Assembly: GCA_963663165.1 (NCBI GenBank)
Contig: OY760175.1
Location: 3,008,001-3,072,000 of the forward strand
DNA: 64,000 bases
Direction of reading: 5' to 3'
Source: an uncultured Desulfospira sp.
GTDB taxonomy: Bacteria > Desulfobacterota > Desulfobacteria > Desulfobacterales > Desulfobacteraceae
Position 1 is the first letter of the stretch. Each line of letters opens with the position of its first letter. The translations under genes were made by a program, and so were the position numbers. The notes below the pieces were generated by a model. The model saw only the letters and a program-made list of their open reading frames with translations. It did not search any database and was not told the origin of the DNA. This document shows positions 19,051 to 62,866 of this stretch, in pieces.

Positions 19051-19296
19051 AGGGCAGAAATCGGGCCGCTTTGGTTATCCAGCCGGGAACCGCCCTTAAC
19101 GAATATTGTTAATTTCTTAAAAAAACATTATCCTGACCACCGTCAGGCATGATAGTCATAAATATCTGCATGGGCCGACAGCCCATTACCCGAAATGAAA
19201 GTCATGAAGGTCACGGAACCTGCGGCCCTAACAGCCTTTTGCCCCAAACCCCTTCAGCCTTTCACAAAAATATTCAAGCATGAAAGGAACCTTGCC

Positions 19297-22200
19297 ATGA
19301 AACCCTTCCAACTGCTTATCCTCATCCTTTTGGTCTGCCTGCTGCCGATGCCGGCATCTGCCGGTGAATTTGAAGCCCTGTTCGCAGGCCAGCAAACCGT
19401 GGATGGCGAAAATACCATTGCCGTTACGTTTTCCGATCCTGTGGACGGCAGGCAGAACCTGTCCGCCTTTCTGGGCATCAGAACAGAGGAGAACGAACCC
19501 GTTAAAGGGGCATGGGTCCTGACCGAAGATTCCCAGGTGGCCTATTTCTCAGGCATTGAACCAGACACGGCCTACAAAATCAGGGTCATGCCCGGGCTCA
19601 AATCCGAAACCGGCCATTCCCTGGGAAAGGAATACACCTACAAAATCAGGACCCGGGAGGCCGACCCCATGATCTCCTTTGGGTCCACGGGGTTTGTCCT
19701 GGCCTCGGAACTGACTTCCGGCCTGCCGGTGAACAGCCTGAATATCCCCCAGGCCGATATTGACTTTTTCAGGGTCAAACCCGGCAAAACCGCAAAGTTT
19801 CTGGACACCTTCCGGTCTTACAACCGGATCGGGTGCTATGACAGCAAAGACCTCAACCGGCTGGCCGATCTGGTGTATACGGGGCGGTGGCAGTTTGATA
19901 TCAAAAAGAACCTGCGCACCCAGGTCAACCTGCCCATCACCCATATCCAGGAGTTGAAACCCTGCGGGATTTACTTTGCGGTCCTGCGGGGGGCCGGCCA
20001 TTATGAATACGAACACAGTACGGCCTGGTTCACCATCTCGGACTTAGGGCTCCATGCCAGGGTGTACAGCCAGAGCCTGGTCTTCCATGCCCAGAGCCTT
20101 AAAACTGCGGATCCCCTGGCAACTGTCACGGTTAAGGGCGTTGATGAAAAGGGAAACCGTCTGTTCTCGGGCACCACGGATGACCAGGGGCGGCTGGCCA
20201 TCAAAGGCCGGTTTGACGGCCTTTCCCTGGTGACCGCATTCCGCGGTGACCATATTACCTTGCTGCCCATGAATGTCCCGGCCCTGGACCTGTCCGAATT
20301 TGCCATGGGAAAAGATGCATTCCGGCCGGTGGAGCTGTTTGTCTACGGCCCCAGGAATATTTACCGTCCCGGCGAAACCGTTGTCATGGACGGCATTTTA
20401 AGGGACCAGGACGGCGGTCCCACACTGGCGGTTCCCATCAAGGCAAAGGTGATACAGCCCGACGGCAAGATGATCCGGGAGTTTACCTGGAAGCCCGGGG
20501 CCGGCAACCATTTTTTCACCCGTTTTTCCCTGCCGGGAAACGCCCTGACCGGCAATTGGAAGGTTGAGTTTTCCAACGGCACCGGGGAACTGTCCCCATA
20601 CCTGTTTCTGGTGTCTGAATTTCTGCCCGAACGGATCAAGCTTGAACTTGAAGACAGCCAGGACAAAATCCTGTCCCCGAAATCGGATTTTAACATTAAA
20701 CTGCAGGGCGATTTCTTATACGGCGCCCCTGCCGCAGGAACCGAAGCCGATGCCATGATCCATGTCAAACCGGCCCGGGAACTGTTTAAAGACCAGTGGC
20801 CCGATGTGGAGTTCGGCAGTTTGAAAGACCTGATCAATACCTCCTACAGCACGGATCAGATCACCCTGGACGGCCAGGGACAGGGCACCATCTCCGTGGA
20901 AAAGGAATGGGCGGATGTCACCTCTCCCCACTGGGTCACCGCCAATGTCAGCCTGTACGATTCCGGGGGGCGGCCCGTTGTCCGGAACATTTCAAGACAG
21001 ATCTGGCCTGGGGACATGCTAACGGGGATCCGGAACCTCACCCCCTTAAAAGACGAAGCCCACCGGGTGCCCTATGATTCAACGGCCGAGTTTGAGGTGA
21101 TCCTGGTGGACAAACAAGGCACCCTTCAGCCGGCAAAAGGCCTGAAAGCAACCGTTATCCGGGAACACAGAGAATATTACTGGGAATACAAAAACGAAGA
21201 CTGGCACTGGGGATACACCAGCCAGCACTACCCCGTTGACCGGTTTTCTTTTGACATCGACCAGGACAGCAGGGGGAAGGTCAGCTTTCCGGTGCAGTGG
21301 GGGGGATACCGCCTGGAGATTTTAAACCCGGCCACGGGCCTGACCACAACCTATGCCGTCCGGGCCGGGTGGGACCCGGACCCGGAAGCCCGGGAAGGCA
21401 ATAACCGGCCGGACCGGGTGGACCTGATCCTGGACAAGCCCGCCTACTTGCCCGGGGACACGGCAAAGGTCACGGTAAAACCGCCCCGGGGCGGCAAAGG
21501 CTGGCTGTTTGTTGACGGGGACCAGAACCTGCTCACCCTTCCCATTGAGATCCCGGAACAGGGCAAAACGGTTGAATTTACCGTTGACCCGTCCTGGAAC
21601 CGGCATGACCTTTATGTGTCGGCCCTGATCATCCGGCAGGCGGAACCTGACGCCGGGGACAAGGCAGACAAACTGCCCAAGCGAAGCCTGGGACTGATCC
21701 CCCTGCCCCTTGACCGGAGTTCAAGACAGCTGGTTGTGGACATCAAGGCCCCGGACAAAATCGAACCCAACCAGACCGTTGAGGTCACGGTGAACCTTGG
21801 CAACACCAACGGCGAAAAAGCCCTGGTGACCCTGGCGGCCGTGGATGTGGGCATCCTTAACCTGACACAGTTTGAAACCCCTTGCGCCTTTGACTATTTT
21901 TTCAGGACAAGGACTTACGAGACAGAGCTGTTTGATATTTATCAGAAACTCATTGAACCCAATGACGGGGCCTATGGCCGCCACAGGTTCGGCGGGGACG
22001 CCCCAAGCCTTACCCGGGGCGGGGACCGGCCGTCCACGGATGTCCAGATTGTGGCCCTGCACTGCCAGGCCATGGAAACCGATGACCGGGGCAATGCAAG
22101 GTTTACCCTGGACCTTCCGGATTTTAACGGCACCCTGCGCCTCATGGCCGTGGCCCATACAGCCAACGGGTTCGGTTCCGGGGACAAGGAGATGATCCTG

Positions 22201-24204
22201 GCCTCGCCCTTAGTGGTTCAGGCCACCATGCCGCGGTTCCTTTCCACCGGCGACAAGGCCTTCCTCATGCTGGACCTGCACAACCTGACCGATACGGCCC
22301 AGCACCTGACCCTTAATGCTCAGATTTTCGGCCCGGTCTCCTTTGACGGCGAAACGATGTCCCAAACCATCGCCCTTGAACCATCCGGAAAATCCGTACG
22401 CCAACTGCCCATGACCGCCGGGACCCAGTCCGGCCGGGCAAATATTACATGCACCATAAAAGGAATCCAACACCAGGGCAAAACCCGGGACCTGACCAAA
22501 AAATGGTTTATAGAAACAAGGTCTCCCTATCCGCCCTTAACCCAAAGATGGGCCAGACAGCTGGCCCCGGGTGAAACCTTAGCGTTGGCTGACGCCGACC
22601 TGGAAGCCCTTGTTTCCGAAACCATCGGGGTCAAGGCCTGCCTGGACGCCCAGCCGCCCATCAACCTTTCCGACCACATTGCCAGCCTCATGGCATATCC
22701 TTACGGCTGCCTGGAACAGACCGTGTCCGGGCTGTTTGCCCATGTGCTGCTCTCAGGTGAACAGTTTGACCGGCTGGGCGTGGCCACCTCAGGCCCTGAG
22801 GAAACCACAAAGAAAATCAACCTGGGCATCCAGGGGCTCATGGAAAAACAGAAAAGCACGGGCGGATTCGGGCTGTGGGACAGCAACAGCCATGAAGAGG
22901 CCTGGCTGACCGCCTATACGGCCCATTTTCTGATCAACGCGGCCGATGCCGGATTCCAGGTGCCGGATACCGTTTTGGAAGACGCGGTCAAGCGGCTGGC
23001 CACCTACGTGCGCAAACCCCGCCGAATCCCGACCCCCTCCTGGGTAGACAGGAATGCCTTCAGGGCACAGGTCTGTGCCTATTCCGCCTTTGTCCTGGCC
23101 CGGGTCCAGGCCTTAGGGCTCGGGGATGCCAGAACGGTCCTGGCCTATGCCCAAAAATATGGGGGCACCCCCCTGGCCCTGGTCCAGGCCGGCGCTGCCC
23201 TGTCCCTGGCCGGGGATTTTCCCGGGGCGGCCAAGGCCTTTGACCTGGCCCTGAAAACCGACCGGGATACCCGAAACTATCACGGCGATTACGGTTCTGA
23301 AGTCCGGGACAGGGCTGCTGCCTATTATTATATTGCCACCTGGTCCCCCCAGTACGAGGACAAGGGCAGCTTTCTCATTGAACTGAACACGGCCATCCAA
23401 GACCGCCAATGGCTGTCCACCCAGGAGCGAAACGCCCTGGTCATGGCCGGCGCGGCAAGGCTCAACGCCACGGGGACACCCTGGCAGGCCGGTGTGACGG
23501 TCAGCGGCAAATCCGAAACCCGCAGCGGCGATCAGCCCGGCCAGGTCATTTTTACCCGGGGGACAGCGGCCAAAGGCTTTGCGGTTGAAAACAAGGGCAG
23601 CGATAACCTGTACGTGGACCTGGTCCTCACCGGATATCCCCGGACCGCACCAGCGCCTTCGGCATCCGTGGTCTGCATCTCCCGCAGGTTCCTGGATCCC
23701 CGGGGAAAGCCCATGGATATCACCCGGGTCCGGTCCGGGGACCGGATTATTGTGGAACTGTCCGTCAAAACGGATAAACGGCTGCCCCATGCCCTGGTGG
23801 TGGATATGGTGCCGGCGGGCATTGAACTGGAAGATCCCCATGTATCCGGCGCCTTTATCATTGACGGCATTGACGTGGACGGCGAACTCATAGAAGACTG
23901 GCATCACCAATACCACCGCTTCCATGACGAATACAGGGACGACCGGTTTGTGGCGGCCATGGATTTAAAACCCGGACAGGCCCGCCGCATTTTTTACGGG
24001 GCCCGGGTGGTCAGCCCGGGTCTGTTCAAGGTGCCGCCTTCCCTTGTGGAAGACATGTACCGGCCCTATATCCGGAGTGTCGGCAACACGGTGGATGAAA
24101 TGGAAGTGGTCAAGAGACAAGATACCGGAAACAAGAAACAAGACGTCGAGGACACGGCACCAGAAAACGGTGCGGCTGAGAAAACGGGCGGTGCTGATTC
24201 ATAG
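19297..24204 (+). CDS. Bacterial alpha-2-macroglobulin (YfhM family)
   Basis: YRPGE, EFLPER, RFGGD bait-region flank, thioester YPYGCLEQT, WLSTQE, EYRDDRFV, VEDMYRP. Start at ATG 19297 after AAAGGA gives a Sec signal peptide. Confidence 0.95.
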   Translation: MKPFQLLILILLVCLLPMPASAGEFEALFAGQQTVDGENTIAVTFSDPVDGRQNLSAFLGIRTEENEPVKGAWVLTEDSQVAYFSGIEPDTAYKIRVMPGLKSETGHSLGKEYTYKIRTREADPMISFGSTGFVLASELTSGLPVNSLNIPQADIDFFRVKPGKTAKFLDTFRSYNRIGCYDSKDLNRLADLVYTGRWQFDIKKNLRTQVNLPITHIQELKPCGIYFAVLRGAGHYEYEHSTAWFTISDLGLHARVYSQSLVFHAQSLKTADPLATVTVKGVDEKGNRLFSGTTDDQGRLAIKGRFDGLSLVTAFRGDHITLLPMNVPALDLSEFAMGKDAFRPVELFVYGPRNIYRPGETVVMDGILRDQDGGPTLAVPIKAKVIQPDGKMIREFTWKPGAGNHFFTRFSLPGNALTGNWKVEFSNGTGELSPYLFLVSEFLPERIKLELEDSQDKILSPKSDFNIKLQGDFLYGAPAAGTEADAMIHVKPARELFKDQWPDVEFGSLKDLINTSYSTDQITLDGQGQGTISVEKEWADVTSPHWVTANVSLYDSGGRPVVRNISRQIWPGDMLTGIRNLTPLKDEAHRVPYDSTAEFEVILVDKQGTLQPAKGLKATVIREHREYYWEYKNEDWHWGYTSQHYPVDRFSFDIDQDSRGKVSFPVQWGGYRLEILNPATGLTTTYAVRAGWDPDPEAREGNNRPDRVDLILDKPAYLPGDTAKVTVKPPRGGKGWLFVDGDQNLLTLPIEIPEQGKTVEFTVDPSWNRHDLYVSALIIRQAEPDAGDKADKLPKRSLGLIPLPLDRSSRQLVVDIKAPDKIEPNQTVEVTVNLGNTNGEKALVTLAAVDVGILNLTQFETPCAFDYFFRTRTYETELFDIYQKLIEPNDGAYGRHRFGGDAPSLTRGGDRPSTDVQIVALHCQAMETDDRGNARFTLDLPDFNGTLRLMAVAHTANGFGSGDKEMILASPLVVQATMPRFLSTGDKAFLMLDLHNLTDTAQHLTLNAQIFGPVSFDGETMSQTIALEPSGKSVRQLPMTAGTQSGRANITCTIKGIQHQGKTRDLTKKWFIETRSPYPPLTQRWARQLAPGETLALADADLEALVSETIGVKACLDAQPPINLSDHIASLMAYPYGCLEQTVSGLFAHVLLSGEQFDRLGVATSGPEETTKKINLGIQGLMEKQKSTGGFGLWDSNSHEEAWLTAYTAHFLINAADAGFQVPDTVLEDAVKRLATYVRKPRRIPTPSWVDRNAFRAQVCAYSAFVLARVQALGLGDARTVLAYAQKYGGTPLALVQAGAALSLAGDFPGAAKAFDLALKTDRDTRNYHGDYGSEVRDRAAAYYYIATWSPQYEDKGSFLIELNTAIQDRQWLSTQERNALVMAGAARLNATGTPWQAGVTVSGKSETRSGDQPGQVIFTRGTAAKGFAVENKGSDNLYVDLVLTGYPRTAPAPSASVVCISRRFLDPRGKPMDITRVRSGDRIIVELSVKTDKRLPHALVVDMVPAGIELEDPHVSGAFIIDGIDVDGELIEDWHHQYHRFHDEYRDDRFVAAMDLKPGQARRIFYGARVVSPGLFKVPPSLVEDMYRPYIRSVGNTVDEMEVVKRQDTGNKKQDVEDTAPENGAAEKTGGADS

Positions 24205-24205
24205 A

Positions 24206-26527
24206 ATGGGCCGGATCAAGGCCATTGGGTTTGGCCTTGGCCTGGTTCTCATCCTTGGGGGAATGGCCGGGGTGGTGCTGGATCGGCTGTTTCCCCTGGA
24301 TCTGTCGGGACGGCCTGTGGCCACCGTGGTGACGGACCGCAACGGCATGCCCCTGCGGATCTTTGCCGACCACCGGGGGATCTGGCGGTTTCCGGCCGTG
24401 CCGTCACAGGTATCGCCCCTCTACCTTGAGGCCCTGCTGGCTTATGAGGATCGGTATTTCTATTATCATCCCGGCGTCAACCCCCTTTCCATGGCCCGGG
24501 CCCTGGTCCAGAACCTGACCAGAGGACAGGTGGTCTCGGGGGGGTCCACCCTGACCATGCAGGTGGCCAGAATCCTGGACAACGATTTAAAAGACGGACA
24601 GGAACGGCTTTGGATAAAATTTATCCAGGTACTCAGGGCCTTCCAGTTGGAATGCCACTGCTCCAAGGATGAGATCCTGGGTCTTTATCTGACCCTGGCC
24701 CCTTTTGGTGCCAATATCGAGGGGGTCCGGGCGGCAGCCTTAACCTGGCTGGGCAAGGATGCCGATAACTTGAGCCACGCCGAAGCCGCCTTGCTGGCAG
24801 TCCTGCCCCAGGCCCCGTCCCGGTACCGGCCGGACCGGCATCCGGATCTCGCCCAAAAAGCCAGAAACAAAGTTCTGGAGCGGCTAAACCGCTTTGGTGT
24901 CTGGTCTGGCCAGGACATTGCCGCGGCCAGGCAGGAGCCGGTCCTGCCGTTCCGGTTTCCCAACCCGGTATCCGCCCCCCTGGCGGCCCGGCGGCTGAAA
25001 AACAAATTTCCGGTAAAACGGGTGATCCCCACCTTCCTGGATCAGGAATTTCAGCTTCATGTGGAAGATATTTTAAAAAACAGCATGGCGGCCATGCCCC
25101 CGAAACAGTCCGGGGCGGTTCTGGTGGTCAACCATAAAACCTTGGGAGTACGGGCCTATGCCGGATCCGCCGACTTTTTTGATACCCGTCGCCTGGGCCA
25201 TGTGGACATGGTCAGGGCCTTCAGGTCTCCCGGATCCACCCTTAAACCCTTTGTATACGGACTGGCCATAGACAAAGGAATTGTCCATTCCCACTCCCTG
25301 CTGCTGGATGTGCCAAGGTTCCAGAAAACCTATGACCCGGGAAATTTCACCCAGGGGTTTGCCGGCCCCGTCACCCTGGAAAGAGCCTTGCAGGATTCCT
25401 TGAACCTGCCGGCGGTCCAGGTGCTTGAAGTCCTGGGGCCGGAAATGTTTCACGGTATTTTGAAAAACGGCGGGGCCCGGTTCAGGTTTGCCGGAAGTCC
25501 CAACCTGTCCATGGCCTTAGGGGGGGTGGGCACATCCCTGGAATCCCTGGTGACCCTGTACACGGCCCTGGCCCGGGAGGGGATCTGCGGCAAACCAAGG
25601 CTGTGCCCCTCAGATCCAGTGGTTGAACGGTACTTGATGAGTCCCGGCACCGCCTGGATCATCCGGCGCATCCTGTCCCGCCCCCTGCCGGGACAGGAAC
25701 AGGCCTCAAGGCTTTCAGGCCGTTTTTCCCTGGCCTGGAAAACCGGGACCAGTTACGGGTTCAGAGATGCCTGGGCCTTGGGGCTCAAAGGCGATTATGT
25801 GGCCGGGGTCTGGGTGGGCCGGCCGGACGGGTCCCCGTCGCCGGGGCAGTACGGCGCGGTCACGGCCCTGCCCCTGCTTTCCCAGGTCATGGAAGGCCTT
25901 GATACCCCTTCGGCCCTGCCGGCCATGCCGGACTCGGTGACCAGGGAAACGGTCTGCTGGCCTTCCGGGCTTGCCGCCGACGCCATTGACGGCAGGGCCA
26001 AGGGGGCCTGTGCCAAAAAATTCAACGCCTGGATCCTGGACCATAAGATTCCGCCAACCCTTACCGGAGAGAATGGGATTGCCGGATCTCTTGTCAAAAC
26101 CATCTGGGTCAACGACAAAGGGGAGCGGGCAAGCCCGGTGTGCGGCGGGATTAAAAAAACAGCCGTGGCCTTCTGGCCCTGGCAGGCCGAGCCCTTTATC
26201 CCCAAGCAGTGGCGGAGGGAAGCCCTCATACCGGAAGATTCCGGGGCGTGTCCGGATTTAGCCCCCATGCGGTTGTCCGGGATAACAATCGTCTCCATCA
26301 CCGACCAGAGCGTGATCACCCGACAGCCCGGGGATCAGGGGCAGATCCGTCTGCCCCTCAGGGCCATGGGCGGCCAGGGAGAACGGCTCTGGTTTTTAAA
26401 CCGAAAACCCGTGGGCAGCCTTACGGCCATTGACATACCGCCCCCGGGCACCTACCAGCTTGCCGTGACGGACGAAACCGGCGCCTGTGATCAGGTCCGT
26501 TTCCGGGTGATCTGCCTGGGGCCTTGA
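24206..26527 (+). CDS. pbpC: Penicillin-binding protein 1C
   Basis: Transglycosylase EDRYFYYHPG, GGSTLTMQVAR; SxxK (STLK), SLN, KTGTS; canonical pairing with alpha-2-macroglobulin. Start uncertain (24191 or 24206). Confidence 0.93.
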   Translation: MGRIKAIGFGLGLVLILGGMAGVVLDRLFPLDLSGRPVATVVTDRNGMPLRIFADHRGIWRFPAVPSQVSPLYLEALLAYEDRYFYYHPGVNPLSMARALVQNLTRGQVVSGGSTLTMQVARILDNDLKDGQERLWIKFIQVLRAFQLECHCSKDEILGLYLTLAPFGANIEGVRAAALTWLGKDADNLSHAEAALLAVLPQAPSRYRPDRHPDLAQKARNKVLERLNRFGVWSGQDIAAARQEPVLPFRFPNPVSAPLAARRLKNKFPVKRVIPTFLDQEFQLHVEDILKNSMAAMPPKQSGAVLVVNHKTLGVRAYAGSADFFDTRRLGHVDMVRAFRSPGSTLKPFVYGLAIDKGIVHSHSLLLDVPRFQKTYDPGNFTQGFAGPVTLERALQDSLNLPAVQVLEVLGPEMFHGILKNGGARFRFAGSPNLSMALGGVGTSLESLVTLYTALAREGICGKPRLCPSDPVVERYLMSPGTAWIIRRILSRPLPGQEQASRLSGRFSLAWKTGTSYGFRDAWALGLKGDYVAGVWVGRPDGSPSPGQYGAVTALPLLSQVMEGLDTPSALPAMPDSVTRETVCWPSGLAADAIDGRAKGACAKKFNAWILDHKIPPTLTGENGIAGSLVKTIWVNDKGERASPVCGGIKKTAVAFWPWQAEPFIPKQWRREALIPEDSGACPDLAPMRLSGITIVSITDQSVITRQPGDQGQIRLPLRAMGGQGERLWFLNRKPVGSLTAIDIPPPGTYQLAVTDETGACDQVRFRVICLGP

Positions 26528-27010
26528 TCAGGACCCGGCAATGGGGGCCACAAATTGTGATTCCGAATCCCAGGGAAAAAGAATCCAGGTATCCTGGCCC
26601 ACTTCGGTGACATAGGCGTCCACCATGGGTTTTCCGGCAGGCTTGGCATATACGGTGGCAAAATAAGCTTTGGGCAGCATTTGCCGGACCACTTTGGCGG
26701 TTCCCCCGGTGTCCACCAGATCATCTATGATCAAGAGGTCCTCCCCGGTTCCCCGGATCTCCTTTAAAATGGTAATCTGTCCCTGGTCCTGCCAGTCATA
26801 GCTGGTGATACAGACCGTATCAATGGTGTGGATGTCCAGTTCCCGGGCAATCACGGCGGCCGGGACCAGCCCGCCCCGGGTGATGGCCACGATCCCCTTC
26901 CATTTCCGGTTCATGTCATGAAGCCGCCAGGACAAGGCCCTGGCATCCCTGTGAAGCTGGTCCCAGGAAATGGGATAACTTCTCTTATATCTGTCTGCTT
27001 TGCCGACCAT
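26528..27010 (-). CDS. gpt: Xanthine-guanine phosphoribosyltransferase
   Basis: [12 protein letters not shown] motif [28 protein letters not shown]. Confidence 0.95.
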
Positions 27011-27023
27011 AAGGTTGCCTTTT

Positions 27024-27100
27024 CTAGCTGTTAGCCGTTAGCTTTTAGCGGTTTTTCGATTTCCAGTCTCCCGCCTTCCGGTCTCCGGTTTCCCTTCCTT
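27024..27100 (-). repeat. Heptamer tandem repeats (GCTAAnA family, then GGArACC family) upstream of gpt
   Basis: CTAGCTG-TTAGCCG-TTAGCTT-TTAGCGG (27024-27051), then TTTCCAG-TCTCCCG-CCTTCCG-GTCTCCG-GTTTCCC. Confidence 0.75.
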
Positions 27101-27190
27101 CCGTTTGACTTTTTTCCAGGCTGTTTTAATGTATCTTTCATTAAAAAAAAAGGCTTAAAAAACAACGCCTCACGCCAAGGAACGAAACCA

Positions 27191-27373
27191 TTGGAAGAAA
27201 TCAACGGCAGGTGCCCTGCCTGCAAGGGAAAACTGTTCATTCGCCGGACCTGAACCCGGGTCTATCTTTGCTGCAGGTCCTGCGGCAAAAAATATCCCGA
27301 AGACAAATATAAAGGCCTCATGGACGAGTTTTTAGAAGAACAGCTGGCCAATGTGCCGGTGAACCGGCTCTGA
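27191..27373 (+). CDS. Small dual-CxxC selenoprotein candidate, 60 aa, in-frame UGA at codon 21
   Basis: AAGGA RBS (27177-27181), TTG start; MEEINGRCPACKGKLFIRRT-U-TRVYLCCRSCGKKYPEDKYKGLMDEFLEEQLANVPVNRL. TGA at 27251-27253 is followed by a SECIS-like hairpin. Confidence 0.82.
27251..27299 (+). promoter_or_regulatory. Bacterial SECIS-like stem-loop
   Basis: TTTGCTGCAG (27267-27276), GTC loop, CTGCGGCAAA (27280-27289): 10-bp stem with one GU pair, starting 13 nt after the UGA. The apex GCAGGUC resembles E. coli fdhF SECIS. Confidence 0.75.
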
Positions 27374-27383
27374 CCCGGATATT

Positions 27384-29750
27384 TCATACCCCATCCGGGT
27401 CTAACAGTTTAAGCACTTCTCCAAATTTGTATTTTTCTACCAGCGGTGTGATTTGATGTAACAATTGTGCGGCATGGTCATTCAGTTCATACTGGTTCAT
27501 CTCGTCGATAATGGGCTTGATCAGCTGGGGCCTGCGTTTTTTAACCGCCTCAACCAGCTGTGCGGTCAGGGCATCCTGCCGGGATGGGGAAATGGGGGAT
27601 TTATGATCCCGGTGTAATGCCGGGGTGTTTTTGCCCAGGCCGCTTTCTTTGATCTCATCGACCACCTGCTGCAAGGCGGTTTTGAAAGGGCCGAACTGAG
27701 TAAGGCAAAGCCCGTCTTCAAACAGAACGCTCTGCTCATGAAGGTCCCGGGCACCGATATTGGCGCTTAACCCTTTTATGGTGTGAACAATCCGTTTGGC
27801 CTTATTCCGGTCATGTTGAATATAACCGGGCAGTTTTTGGGCCATCCCGTCATAGTTTTCAGAGAAATCTTTCAGAATTTTCACATATAGATCCGCATCT
27901 CCGGCCATCCGGGCAAGACCTGCCCTGGTGTCAATGGATTTGAATTTTAGAAAGGCCGCCGGTGTTCGGGATTGAGAATCTCCTGATCCGTTTTCGAATG
28001 ACAGGTCGCACTTTTTGGGGATATGGGCCAGAATGGCCTCAAAAAGTTCCTCCGCATCAATGGGCTTGTTGATATGATCATTCATCCCAAACTGCTTGGA
28101 TTTTTCAATATCGCTTTTCATTGCATTGGCGCTGACGGCAATGATGGGAACCGTTGCGTCCGCATCTCTGATCTTCTTTGTGGCGGTATACCCATCCATG
28201 ACCGGCATTTGCAGATCCATGAGAATCATCTCGTATTGGTCCGGATCAGCGGTATAGATGTCAACGGCCTCTTTCCCATTGACGGCTTCGGTAATGATAA
28301 TCCCGCTGTTTTCCAGCATGCCCCGGATGATTTCACGGTTCAGGGCATTGTCTTCAACCAGCAGCACGCGGCTGCCTTTTCTGGTGGAAAGCTGTGTTTG
28401 CAAACAACGGGTTTCGGCCTTGTGTGACAGGGGCCGGACCATGCCGGAGCCAAAACAGCCGGCAATGATATCATACAGAACAGACGGATTCACCGGTTTT
28501 TGCAAATACACATCAAACCCGTATTCCCTGGCCGCCTGTTCTAAAATTTCCTTTTGGCAGGCCGACACCATGATAATGGCCGCCGGCATGGCCGGGCACT
28601 GGTCCTGAAGATCTCCCACCGCCTGAATCCCGTCCGTACCGGGCATATCCCAGTCCATTAAAATCAAATCATATGGATCTTCACAGCCGGTGAGCAGGGC
28701 CTTTGCTTCCTGGGTGTTGCCGGCCACATCGGCATGAATGGACACCTGGCAAAGCATGCCCTTTAAAATCACCTGCCATGACGGGGCACTGTCAACGATG
28801 AGAACCCGTTTGCCTTTAAACTGCTGAACCTGGGGGGTCATGGGCTCAATGTCTTTGAGCCTGATTTCAAAAATAAACCGGCTGCCCCTGCCGGCCTCGC
28901 TTTCCACCCAGATCCGGCCGTCCATCATTTCCACCAAATGTTTGCAGATGGACAGGCCAAGGCCGGTACCGCCATATTGCCGGGTGGTGCTGGTATCGGC
29001 CTGGCTAAAGGACTGAAACAGTCTGGCCTGCTGTTCTTGGGTCAGGCCGATGCCGGTATCGGTGACCTCAAACCGGTACCGGTCTTTGGCCAGTTTTTCA
29101 ACATACACCCCCACCTCACCTGTTTCCGTGAATTTGACGGCATTGTTCACCAGGTTGGTCAGGATCTGGGAAAGCCGCAACGGATCGCCGTGGAACACCA
29201 TGTTGGTGACATTGCCATAGGACACCACAAAATCCAGGTTCTTCTCAGAGGCTGTGGTTTCAATGAGCACGGTCACATCTTCAATAACCTTGTGAAGGTT
29301 AAAGTCGATCTCCTCTAAGTCCAGCCGCCCGGCTTCAATTTTTGAAAGATCCAGGATATCGTTGATAATGCCCAGCAGGGATCTGGCAGAAGAATCAATT
29401 TTGGAAATATAATTCTGCTGCCGGGATGTGGGGCTGGTCTGCTTTAACAGATAGGTCATGCCGGTGATGGCGTTCATGGGGGTCCGGATTTCATGGCTCA
29501 TATTGGCCAGGAACTCGCTTTTGGCCCGGGTGGATGCCGTGGCTTCGGCAATGGCCTTTTCAAGCTCCCGGGTCTTTCTGGCCACGGCATCCTCAAGCAG
29601 GATATTGCTTTCAAACAGGGAATAGGCGTTGCCGGCGGATTTGACGCTTTTTTTGACCCGGTCTTTGAGGGCATCAATGACTTTTTGTGACCGGTCTAAT
29701 TTTTCCTTTAGATCGGCCACCTCTTTGCGTAAATCGTCCTGGTCCGGCAT
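27384..29750 (-). CDS. Hybrid histidine kinase (coiled coil, HisKA, HATPase, REC, REC, HPt); NahK-like partner of FIST/NosP
   Basis: [14 protein letters not shown], two receiver domains, HPt VHTIKG; N-terminal [10 protein letters not shown]...[12 protein letters not shown] coiled coil like that of NosP-associated kinases. Confidence 0.92.
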
Positions 29751-29753
29751 GGG

Positions 29754-30890
29754 TTATGCCTCTCCTATCACCACGCCGGTCAGGGTCTGGTTAACGTGAA
29801 TGGCGTTAAACTGTTCCCCGAAACTGCTGAATCCCACAAATTTCAGCCGGGCCAGGGTGGCTTCAATTTTACCGGCCTTGCCGGTTTTAAACAGGTCGAT
29901 GCGGCGGCGCAGGCAGTCAAATCCAATGGTGCAGAAAACCGTTGAAAATTCTTTGGCCAGCGCTTTGCCGGCTTTCTCAAAGTGTTCCACAAACCCGAGC
30001 CCTTTGGCCACCACCAGCACCAGGCCGTTGTCAACGGCACAATAAAAGGTGAGGCCGCCGTCAGGGTTCACTTTCTGGATGGTCCGCACGTACCACTGGT
30101 CCCCGATTTCCACCATGAGCGGATAGGCGGCAAACACCTCCGGGTTTAACTGCAGGGTTTCAAGCCCGATGGTTCTGGCATACTCCTCGGCCGCGGGGCC
30201 GCCATTGATTTCCGACACGGTCCGGGTCATGGGATCGGCTTTGGTGATGATCAGATCTGTTTGGGACGGAATAAAATTCTGGAGCTTGAATGTTTTAAAT
30301 GCCGGCCTGGATTCGATCAGGATCAGGGCACCGGCCCCCGTGTAAAAATCGCCGTTGGCAAATATATGGGTTTCTTGAAATTCCGTACTGTTGCCGGCTG
30401 ATCCGCCCACTAAAGGAACCCCCTTTAGAACCGTACTGATATTGGCGGCCACGGCCTCTTCCATGGCGGAAAGGCCGTCCAGAAGGACCATGGCAAACAT
30501 CTTTTCAGGATTAAAATCATCGGATATTTCCAGCTCGTTACGAATACTGTCCCCCAATTTAAAGGCGGCTTCCGCATCAAAGCGTTCTATGGAAGGGATC
30601 AGGCGGGAATGAAAACAAAAATCAGACCTTGCAAAACTTGCCGCCACAATGCCGTTTTCCTGGTAACGGGTCCCGATTTCCCCGGCCGTGGTACACCCCA
30701 CCACCGGGCAGTCAAAGGCCTGCCGGAATTCAGCGGCCAGGGCGGCCGGATTATAATTGGCCGAGCAGAAAAAGACCACGCCCGCAGGATCATCCTGATA
30801 AAGCTGTTCTGAAAGGGATGCCACCGCAATGGCAGGGTCCGGCGCCACCACCTCGGCCCGCTTGATTTTGTCACTTTTTGCCCTGGGCAT
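29754..30890 (-). CDS. FIST_N/FIST_C protein (NosP-like), copy 2
   Basis: VGCTTAGEI, PLVGGSAG, VSEINGGPAAEEY, GFDC..RR, GFSSFGEQ, HVNQTLTGV. Confidence 0.92.
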   Translation of the reverse strand: MPRAKSDKIKRAEVVAPDPAIAVASLSEQLYQDDPAGVVFFCSANYNPAALAAEFRQAFDCPVVGCTTAGEIGTRYQENGIVAASFARSDFCFHSRLIPSIERFDAEAAFKLGDSIRNELEISDDFNPEKMFAMVLLDGLSAMEEAVAANISTVLKGVPLVGGSAGNSTEFQETHIFANGDFYTGAGALILIESRPAFKTFKLQNFIPSQTDLIITKADPMTRTVSEINGGPAAEEYARTIGLETLQLNPEVFAAYPLMVEIGDQWYVRTIQKVNPDGGLTFYCAVDNGLVLVVAKGLGFVEHFEKAGKALAKEFSTVFCTIGFDCLRRRIDLFKTGKAGKIEATLARLKFVGFSSFGEQFNAIHVNQTLTGVVIGEA

Positions 30891-30917
30891 ATTGGTTTTC
30901 CTTTGTTTTAAAAAGGC

Positions 30918-32057
30918 TTACTTTTCACCGATCACAACCCCGGTCAAGGTATGGTTGACATGAACGGCGTTGATCTGTTCCCCGTAGGTGCTGAACCCCA
31001 CAAATTTCATCTGGGCCAGTGCCGCTTCAACATCAGCGGCCTCCCCTTTTTTGTGCAGTTCCAGGCGGCGATGAAGGCAGTCAAACCCAATGGTACAAAA
31101 AATCGTCGAGAATTCGCGATTCAACTCTCTGGCCAGGGCCTCCAGATTTTCCACAAATCCGCCCCCTTTTCCCAAGGCCACCACCAGCCCGCTGTCAATG
31201 GCACAGGAAAAGGTCAGGCTGTTATCGGGATTTGCATCCATAATGGACCGGACATACCACTGGTCCCCGATCTCCAGCATCAGGGGGTTGTCGGCGAACA
31301 CCTCAAAGGACAAATCCTTGACGTCAAGCCCCAGGGTCCTGGCATACTCCAGGGCAGCCGGCCCGCCGTTGATCTCCGACACCATCCGGGTTTTGGGATC
31401 GGCCTCAGTGATGATCAGGTCAATGTCCGACGGAACAAAATCCTGGTGCTTAAAGATTTTAAAATCCTTCCGGGTTTCGATCAGGATCACCAGGCCTGCC
31501 CCGGTGTGAAACCGGCCATTGGCAAACACCCGGGTTTCTTTAAAAATCATGTTGTCCGCCGCAGACCCGCCCACCAGGGAGACACCGTTTAAGGCGGCGG
31601 TAATATGGGGGATCACAGTTTCCTCCATGAGCGAAAGGCCGTCAAACAGGCCCATGGCAAACATTTTGCCGGAATCAAAATCATTTGAGAATTCAAGTTG
31701 TTTGCGCATGGCATCTGCCTGGGCAAAAGCGGCTTTGGCGTCAAAATCACGAATGGGGGAAATTAAATGGGGGTGCAACCGGAAATCAGATCCGGCAAAA
31801 CTTAAGGCCACAATACTGTTTTCCTGGTAACAGGTTCCGATTTCTCCGGCCGTGGTACACCCAGCCACCGGACAGTCAAACCGGGCGTTGAATTCGGCGG
31901 CCAGGGCCTTTGGATCATAATATTCAGCAGAGCAGAAAAAGATCACACCGGCGGTCTCATCCTGGGAAAGCTGCTCTGCCAGGGATGCTACCGCGACAGC
32001 AGGATCCTTTGAATTTGCCTCTGCGCGCTTGATTTTTTCAAATCCGGCAACCGGCAT
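30918..32057 (-). CDS. FIST_N/FIST_C protein (NosP-like), copy 1
   Basis: AGCTTAGEI, LVGGSAAD, GFDCLHRR, GFSTYGEQ, HVNHTLTGV; collinear with copy 2. Confidence 0.92.
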   Translation of the reverse strand: MPVAGFEKIKRAEANSKDPAVAVASLAEQLSQDETAGVIFFCSAEYYDPKALAAEFNARFDCPVAGCTTAGEIGTCYQENSIVALSFAGSDFRLHPHLISPIRDFDAKAAFAQADAMRKQLEFSNDFDSGKMFAMGLFDGLSLMEETVIPHITAALNGVSLVGGSAADNMIFKETRVFANGRFHTGAGLVILIETRKDFKIFKHQDFVPSDIDLIITEADPKTRMVSEINGGPAALEYARTLGLDVKDLSFEVFADNPLMLEIGDQWYVRSIMDANPDNSLTFSCAIDSGLVVALGKGGGFVENLEALARELNREFSTIFCTIGFDCLHRRLELHKKGEAADVEAALAQMKFVGFSTYGEQINAVHVNHTLTGVVIGEK

Positions 32058-41283: not shown

Positions 41284-41318
41284 GGCTAATGGCTAACAGC
41301 TAAAGGCTAACAGCTAAA
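41284..41318 (+). repeat. Five rGCTAAn heptamers directly before the pspA RBS
   Basis: GGCTAAT-GGCTAAC-AGCTAAA-GGCTAAC-AGCTAAA. Confidence 0.85.
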
Positions 41319-41336
41319 ACAAAAGGAGAGTACCAA

Positions 41337-62816: not shown

Positions 62817-62866
62817 CCGCTGAGTGCTAACAGCTAAAAGCTAATAGCTAAAGGCTAACTGCTTTC
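62811..62866 (+). repeat. Eight nGCTAAn heptamers between hisS and aspS
   Basis: AGCTAAC-CGCTGAG-TGCTAAC-AGCTAAA-AGCTAAT-AGCTAAA-GGCTAAC-TGCTTTC; the first unit supplies the hisS stop codon. Confidence 0.85.

Follow-up and report, generated by a model that had tools for sequence, protein, structure and literature searches.

The question raised by this locus is whether a short frame that runs through an in-frame TGA, between a divergent phosphoribosyltransferase gene and a convergent hybrid histidine kinase gene, encodes a selenoprotein, and what a protein of 60 residues carrying a single selenocysteine would do in such an organism. The window referred to throughout is the whole stretch of DNA that was analysed, 64,000 nucleotides from an uncultured Desulfospira sp., and positions are counted from its first letter.

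The locus and its reading frame

The features of the gene and of its transcript are as follows.

27191..27373, + strand: gene of the dual-CxxC small protein, very likely a selenoprotein (NF041197 / OS_HP3), 60 aa, TTG start and TGA stop, translated with TGA as U
27177..27181, + strand: ribosome-binding site AAGGA, separated from the start codon by 9 nt, from the sequence
27212..27223, + strand: first CxxC (C8-P-A-C11), predicted zinc ligands, invariant in 58 and in 120 aligned sequences
27251..27253, + strand: in-frame TGA, codon 21, very likely selenocysteine in an R-T-U motif, from the codon counts in homologues
27267..27289, + strand: bacterial SECIS hairpin with a 10-bp upper stem and the loop GUC, from the fold and its conservation in TGA genes
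27272..27283, + strand: second CxxC (C28-R-S-C31), predicted zinc ligands, invariant in the alignments, with codons that coincide with the SECIS stem
27320..27370, + strand: acidic helix and conserved C-terminal tail, residues 44-60, from a predicted helix at 46-54 (pLDDT about 57) and column counts
27371-27373, + strand: TGA stop codon of the selenoprotein gene, with 10 bp between it and the stop (27384) of the convergent hybrid histidine kinase

The ribosome-binding site, TTG start, CPAC, TGA at codon 21, CCRSC and acidic stretch named in the preliminary description are all present in the sequence, CCRSC being codons 27-31 and the acidic stretch residues 44-50 of the translation, and the 10-bp gap that it gave between the stop at 27371-27373 and the kinase stop at 27384 is there as well. 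A start codon is found at this position, 7 codons ahead of the first Cys, in many relatives, and the genome holds the NF041197 gene in single copy. Contigs from two studies cover codon 21 and are identical there, and a related strain has 8 differences in the frame (6 synonymous, 2 not) with none in the TGA or the hairpin. Because the contigs of the two studies agree and the related strain keeps both TGA and hairpin, an assembly error at codon 21 is excluded.

The upstream, divergent gene encodes a xanthine phosphoribosyltransferase (gpt; 251 bits against an NCBIfam cut-off of 138), and a scan of 26900-27600 for sigma-70 promoters found none. Two kinds of short array immediately precede the start codon of gpt. 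One is built of a seven-base unit ending TTAGC (27018-27053, with others of its kind in the window at 41285-41319 and 62826-62860), of which arrays of three or more units number 225 in the genome versus none in 2 Mb of shuffled sequence; the other follows at about 27060-27095 with a CCGGTCT-type unit that forms 39 arrays. On the other side of the gene, a 9-pair hairpin with z = -3.9 at 27372-27401 spans both convergent stops and overlaps the last codons of the kinase; with no U-run downstream, it is at most a candidate terminator. Within 27384-32057 (- strand), two tandem FIST-domain (NosP-like) genes come before the hybrid histidine kinase, the one that was scanned scoring 379 bits on NosP, below the cut-off of 450. 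Further off, at 19195-26527 (+ strand), a 1669-aa gene without any NCBIfam match to its protein is followed by penicillin-binding protein 1C (over its cut-off), which we take to be the usual bacterial alpha-2-macroglobulin arrangement.

Family membership

The read-through peptide scores 77.4 bits on NCBIfam NF041197, named 'dual CXXC motif small (seleno)protein', for which the cut-off is 40 (E = 6.5 × 10−22), with residues 8-60 aligned to positions 1-53 of the 53 in the profile, and it still scores 68 bits if the TGA is kept as a stop. By this profile match the gene is a member of a family that is already catalogued and not a new selenoprotein, and the suspicion voiced in the preliminary description that a dual-CxxC family had been annotated before was correct. 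OS_HP3 was reported in 2007 by Zhang and Gladyshev with a predicted SECIS (PMC1976440), and NF041197 appears in a 2026 review as hypothetical protein OS_HP3, with the motif RxU (PMC13188914). The supplements to deep-Sep contain OS_HP3 representatives with R-T-U between two CxxC (PMC12013277), the table of a 2022 review files OS_HP3 under 'Predicted' and not under 'Experimentally verified' (PMC9312934), and a term search of the BSepDB main text did not find the family terms (PMC13326102). Cys-form homologues from Desulfobacter carry the dual CXXC (seleno)protein name in RefSeq. The family has been a prediction since 2007, and our literature search, made without Haft and Tolstoy 2025, turned up listings at most, with no experiment, no function and no dsr link for NF041197.

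The present protein shares with NF041197 / OS_HP3 the R-T-U placed between two CxxC (C8xxC11, R19-T20-U21, C28xxC31), the size and the SECIS after the TGA. It differs at position 57, where it has Val and 41 of the 58 homologues have a C-terminal Cys, and in an extra Cys27 that occurs in 15 of the 58; both lie within the range of the family. Its 60 residues fit a stand-alone size of about 55-70. Longer library hits were considered as fusions and rejected on inspection, being start or stop miscalls or generic repeated zinc ribbons; the one hit to the family among longer proteins is a partial match from a single member, which is weak evidence against fusions.

Decoding of codon 21

We searched 301 genomes of the phylum and 61 relatives for NF041197. 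The cut-off is passed in 99 distinct genomes. The match contains one TGA in 81 of them; in the other 18 the frame is open, and all 18 open frames, when read, have Cys at the site. The codon itself was read in the 58 best-scoring loci, our own included, and is TGA in 41, TGC or TGT in 17 and anything else in 0; the other 40 TGA matches are counted as having a TGA in the match and not codon by codon. An alignment of the 58 exhibits conservation on both sides of the TGA. A pattern scan of the genomes that allowed TGR at the site gives at least 119 stretches, with TGA in 107 of the 107 family members among the matches listed, and the corresponding scan of metagenomes finds 0 family members among 31 TGG matches, this DNA scan sampling only the clade with the TGCAGGTC hairpin apex. 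The genome has what is needed for decoding, all over cut-off: selB (349 bits), selA (604), selD (366) and tRNA-Sec, selC (75.3), and its selD itself carries an in-frame TGA. On these comparative grounds we regard selenocysteine as very likely the reading of codon 21.

The rival reading denies the selenoprotein and takes the TGA for a genuine stop, for a Trp codon or for an error. It draws on the representative protein library, where the best 150 hits include 92 full-length proteins with 84 Cys, 6 Trp, 1 Arg and 1 Asn at the site, and where the 58 hits left uncounted (fragments, odd spacings and unrelated long proteins) have Trp at the site in four more. Three of the Trp proteins also read the stop position of the family as Trp, which suggests that they are gene calls made with TGA as W, and the six that were looked up are singletons; a gene-call artefact behind the library Trp proteins is suggested by the protein sequences from which we infer it. 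At the DNA level TGG is found in 0 of the 107 members among the genome matches listed and in no member among the 31 metagenome TGG matches. Trp or Arg at codon 21 was rejected, since the 58 of 58 loci have only TGA or Cys and the library Trp entries are probable artefacts of gene calling. A stop or an error is opposed by the conservation on either side of the TGA and by the same codon in the contigs of two studies. The rival reading can also point to one TGA-form genome that has no selA match, yet with all of this taken together we consider it exceedingly improbable. That genome (G139, locus L033) is 99% complete and its SECIS is missing the loop G; its gene is possibly decaying after loss of Sec use, or the selA gap is one of assembly.

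The selenoprotein interpretation of the preliminary description is supported by a site that holds only TGA or Cys with both flanks conserved in 58 loci, by a hairpin confined to the TGA genes and by the presence of selA, selB, selC and selD. It had named Trp, Arg or a variable residue at codon 21, a lack of conservation downstream and a lack of Sec machinery as outcomes that would speak against it, and at the DNA level we see none of these.

The SECIS hairpin

The upper stem pairs 27267-27276 with 27280-27289, making 10 pairs with one U-G, and begins 13 nt past the TGA, so the 10-bp stem of the preliminary description is recovered by the fold with its loop GUC. A lower stem of 4 bp pairs 27257-27260 with 27296-27299. 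The preliminary description likens the apex, GCAGGUC, to that of E. coli fdhF. For the 47 nt that follow the TGA, folding gives -20.7 kcal/mol with z = -3.97, and 1 of 200 shuffles does equally well, as do 20 of 1000 synonymous recodings. The full stem with a loop G in the SECIS register lies behind only 16 of the 259,577 TGA triplets of the genome. A published SECIS model asks for a loop of 3-9 nt with G in its first two positions, an upper stem of 4-16 bp, 16-37 nt from UGA to loop and an energy of -7.5 kcal/mol or lower (PMC13188914). Checked by hand, the hairpin fits, with a loop of 3 nt that starts with G, a stem of 10 bp, a distance of 23 nt and -13.5 kcal/mol for the upper hairpin.

Across the family the core of the hairpin, meaning four pairs and the loop G, is found in 38 of 41 TGA genes versus 0 of 17 Cys genes, and synonymous recoding would be expected to leave it in 8.2 of the 41. 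The codons of the second CxxC double as the SECIS apex. The Arg at U+8, which directly follows C28, is encoded by AGG in 28 of the 31 TGA genes that have it, whereas AGG makes up 26 of the 182 remaining Arg codons of these genes. Where the residue is Lys it is AAG in 7 of 7 TGA genes; held to AGG or AAG in the TGA forms, this residue is freed in the Cys forms and is mostly Pro. By established bacterial Sec decoding, SelB would almost certainly bind this hairpin and insert Sec at codon 21.

Conserved residues and predicted fold

In an alignment of 120 sequences, C8, C11, U/C21, C28 and C31 are invariant, and E49 and R59 are nearly so. The library members in that alignment were picked for Cys, so column 21 is invariant there by selection; the 58-locus set is unselected. 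Selenocysteine usually marks a catalytic or redox site, and the presence of an invariant Cys/Sec in addition to the four ligands suggests that the protein has a chemical role. Since this protein has Val57, an internal resolving cysteine is not required, and with Cys at 57 in 41 of 58 only, the family has no conserved resolving cysteine.

AlphaFold2 predicts strands at 3-7, 14-19, 24-28 and 34-36 and a helix at 46-54. Its confidence is middling, with a mean pLDDT of 63.5 from the smaller alignment and 67.4 from the other, pTM of 0.36 and 0.44, and pLDDT of 76-77 over residues 11-30. We picture a ribbon in which C8, C11, C28 and C31 probably bind one zinc and the turn joining strands 14-19 and 24-28 carries U21, at the tip of the hairpin, far from the metal and amid basic residues; the placing of U21 at the opposite end of the hairpin from both knuckles follows from the ribbon topology and would hold if that topology is right. 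The strand pattern and the Pfam zinc-ribbon models, which match many members of the family, lend predictive support to the earlier proposal of a zinc-ribbon scaffold that presents Sec between the CxxC pairs. Zn_ribbon_6 (PF07191) matches 47 of the 120 members at E = 0.01, and this protein itself has no PF07191 match. Structural neighbours are weak and largely zinc ribbons, the best at Z = 4.4 and 3.9; Foldseek gives no match at E = 0.001, and VIA finds no Z of 5 or more.

Two known proteins invite comparison. The second ribbon of the enterobacterial double zinc ribbon YfgJ (PDB ID: 2jne, 2jrp) aligns with residues 6-31 at E = 10−4 and has a Cys of its own exactly opposite U21. YfgJ differs in having two ribbons and no acidic helix, where this protein has one ribbon, and homology to YfgJ / PF07191 is no more than suggested. 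HypA consists of an N-terminal nickel-binding domain and an inserted zinc domain, about 110-140 aa in all. The zinc domain of Thermococcus HypA (PDB ID: 3a43) resembles our protein in a CxxC followed by an acidic helix, which align over residues 24-56 at E = 1.5 × 10−4, but the order of the knuckles is different, the nickel-binding domain is absent here, and nothing in the aligned part matches U21. The HypA chain in this comparison has 139 residues versus 60 here, and no HypA model is among the Pfam or NCBIfam matches of this protein.

Genomic distribution and neighbourhood

The marker dsrA is present in 155 of the 301 genomes of the phylum and in 53 of the 56 that pass the NF041197 cut-off. 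The family thus occurs in 3 of 146 dsrA-negative genomes, and these are 61-86% complete, one of them having a cut piece of dsrA beside dsrB. The converse does not hold, as 102 of the 155 dsrA genomes have no family match over the cut-off; among the relatives the family is missing in 12 of 56 dsrA-positive genomes, and one genome that is 98% complete (G340) has the family with no dsrA match. A fuller rescoring of 80 genomes (G001-G080) returns the same 15 with the main form. As selA is found in 74 of 80 sampled genomes, the dsrA association is not merely one of selenium use, and for the same reason a correlation with the Sec machinery across genomes is uninformative.

The genes flanking the family are argJ at 15 loci, truA at 14, a pyrE-type PRTase at 9, a membrane transporter at 7, gpt at 6 and others that are scattered. 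They are varied housekeeping genes with no common pathway, and say less about function than the distribution does. A scan of 58 flanking proteins, taken from 114 flanking frames of which the remainder are mostly repeats of clusters already seen, found no dsr gene, and in this genome dsrA lies more than 3 Mb from the selenoprotein gene.

The GxU paralogue

The weak NF041197 matches form a second subfamily with G-R/K-U, for which the published name is 'hypothetical protein DW', motif GxU (deep-Sep, PMC12013277). DW is like the main family in its CxxC-x9-U-x6-CxxC frame and in the register of the SECIS, and profile-profile comparison joins the two at a probability of 98% (E = 1.8 × 10−13, 52 columns). 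It differs in having G-R/K-U and not R-T-U, in being without the conserved C-terminal tail, and in its occurrence in dsr clusters. A search with the paralogue profile at E = 0.1 does not find it in this genome; it is present in 9 of 80 others, all of them with dsrA.

At 5 of the 20 loci fetched, the GxU paralogue is inside a dsr cluster, adjoining a gene pair of a TPR protein and a DVU0298-family protein; in two genomes dsrA is the next gene downstream of it, and in two it faces dsrP. The dsr-cluster loci of the paralogue are

L114-L118 (genomes G071, G259, G032, G230 and G106); also L065, L066, L068, L071 and L077

These five placements may share one ancestral event. Both the association of the family with dsrA and the placement of the paralogue in dsr clusters are confounded by kinship, kin not being independent observations. 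Elsewhere the paralogue is upstream of selD at 2 of the 20 loci, follows desulfoferrodoxin at one and precedes an HdrA-like gene at another. Two paralogues just upstream of selD, L074:1663-2175 (- strand) and L080:2028-2507 (+ strand), are lengthened at the C terminus by about 110 residues, which include a CLPCE motif.

Candidate functions

The reading that we favor, tentatively and at somewhat under an even chance, is that a zinc-held ribbon presents a single exposed selenol to a partner protein, with which it exchanges electrons or sulfur in an accessory role in sulfur-respiring cells. The selenol would cycle through a mixed selenosulfide or carry sulfur, and the acidic helix and tail would perhaps dock on a partner that belongs to dissimilatory sulfur metabolism or to its redox upkeep, steps to which we give the same guarded standing. 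A narrower version, which would make NF041197 and the GxU paralogue selenium-bearing accessories of dissimilatory sulfur metabolism, with the selenol passing or taking sulfur or resetting thiols in the Dsr pathway, is in our estimate rather doubtful.

Three other functions were weighed against the redox or sulfur-exchange reading. Selenolates bind soft metals strongly, and the protein might be a small chaperone or scavenger, comparable to the HypA zinc domain, that uses U21 to bind soft metals or metalloids (Ni, Cu, Hg, As) or to pass them on. The weak alignment of the second CxxC and helix with the archaeal HypA zinc domain (E = 1.5 × 10−4 to 2.8 × 10−4, residues 24-56) and the additional Cys at 27 (15 of 58) or 57 (41 of 58) in homologues are in line with this, but the match takes in only half of the zinc site, with the order changed, and leaves out the nickel-binding part altogether, and no hydrogenase-maturation or metal-efflux cluster occurs among the scanned flanks, so that we find a metal carrier unlikely. 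A sensor or regulator, in which oxidation of U21 or selenium-dependent read-through switches the binding of a zinc ribbon to nucleic acid or to a transcription or translation factor, would make use of the basic hairpin (R18, R19, R23), and it has as weak fold neighbours the zinc ribbons of RNA polymerase subunits, TFIIS, topoisomerase I and PriA, all with Z below 4.5. Such neighbours, however, come with any zinc ribbon, and none has a Z of 5 or more. The position of the GxU paralogue beside selD at 2 of 20 loci might hint at selenium sensing, but Cys forms are found in 18 genomes, 17 of which have selA, an ill fit for a selenium gauge, and we hold a sensor to be distinctly improbable.

Two CxxC can hold Fe or Zn, as in zinc-ribbon and rubredoxin knuckles, and the protein could on that basis be a rubredoxin-like one-electron carrier in which the four Cys hold Fe in place of Zn and U21 tunes or relays electrons. 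The hosts are anaerobes rich in such carriers, and of the paralogue loci one comes after desulfoferrodoxin and one before an HdrA-like gene. On the other hand, no rubredoxin family is among the top 25 of 94 Pfam matches listed for the 120 members, and the 16-residue spacing matches zinc ribbons, which leaves an iron carrier with little probability.

Significance

As a gene, this locus adds one more member to a catalogued family, and the matter of interest is its function. Gene callers that stop at the TGA miss the gene or mistranslate it, and this member is useful for fixing annotation. If the Dsr-accessory reading is true, it would explain both the near-confinement of the family to dsrA genomes and the presence of its paralogue inside dsr clusters.
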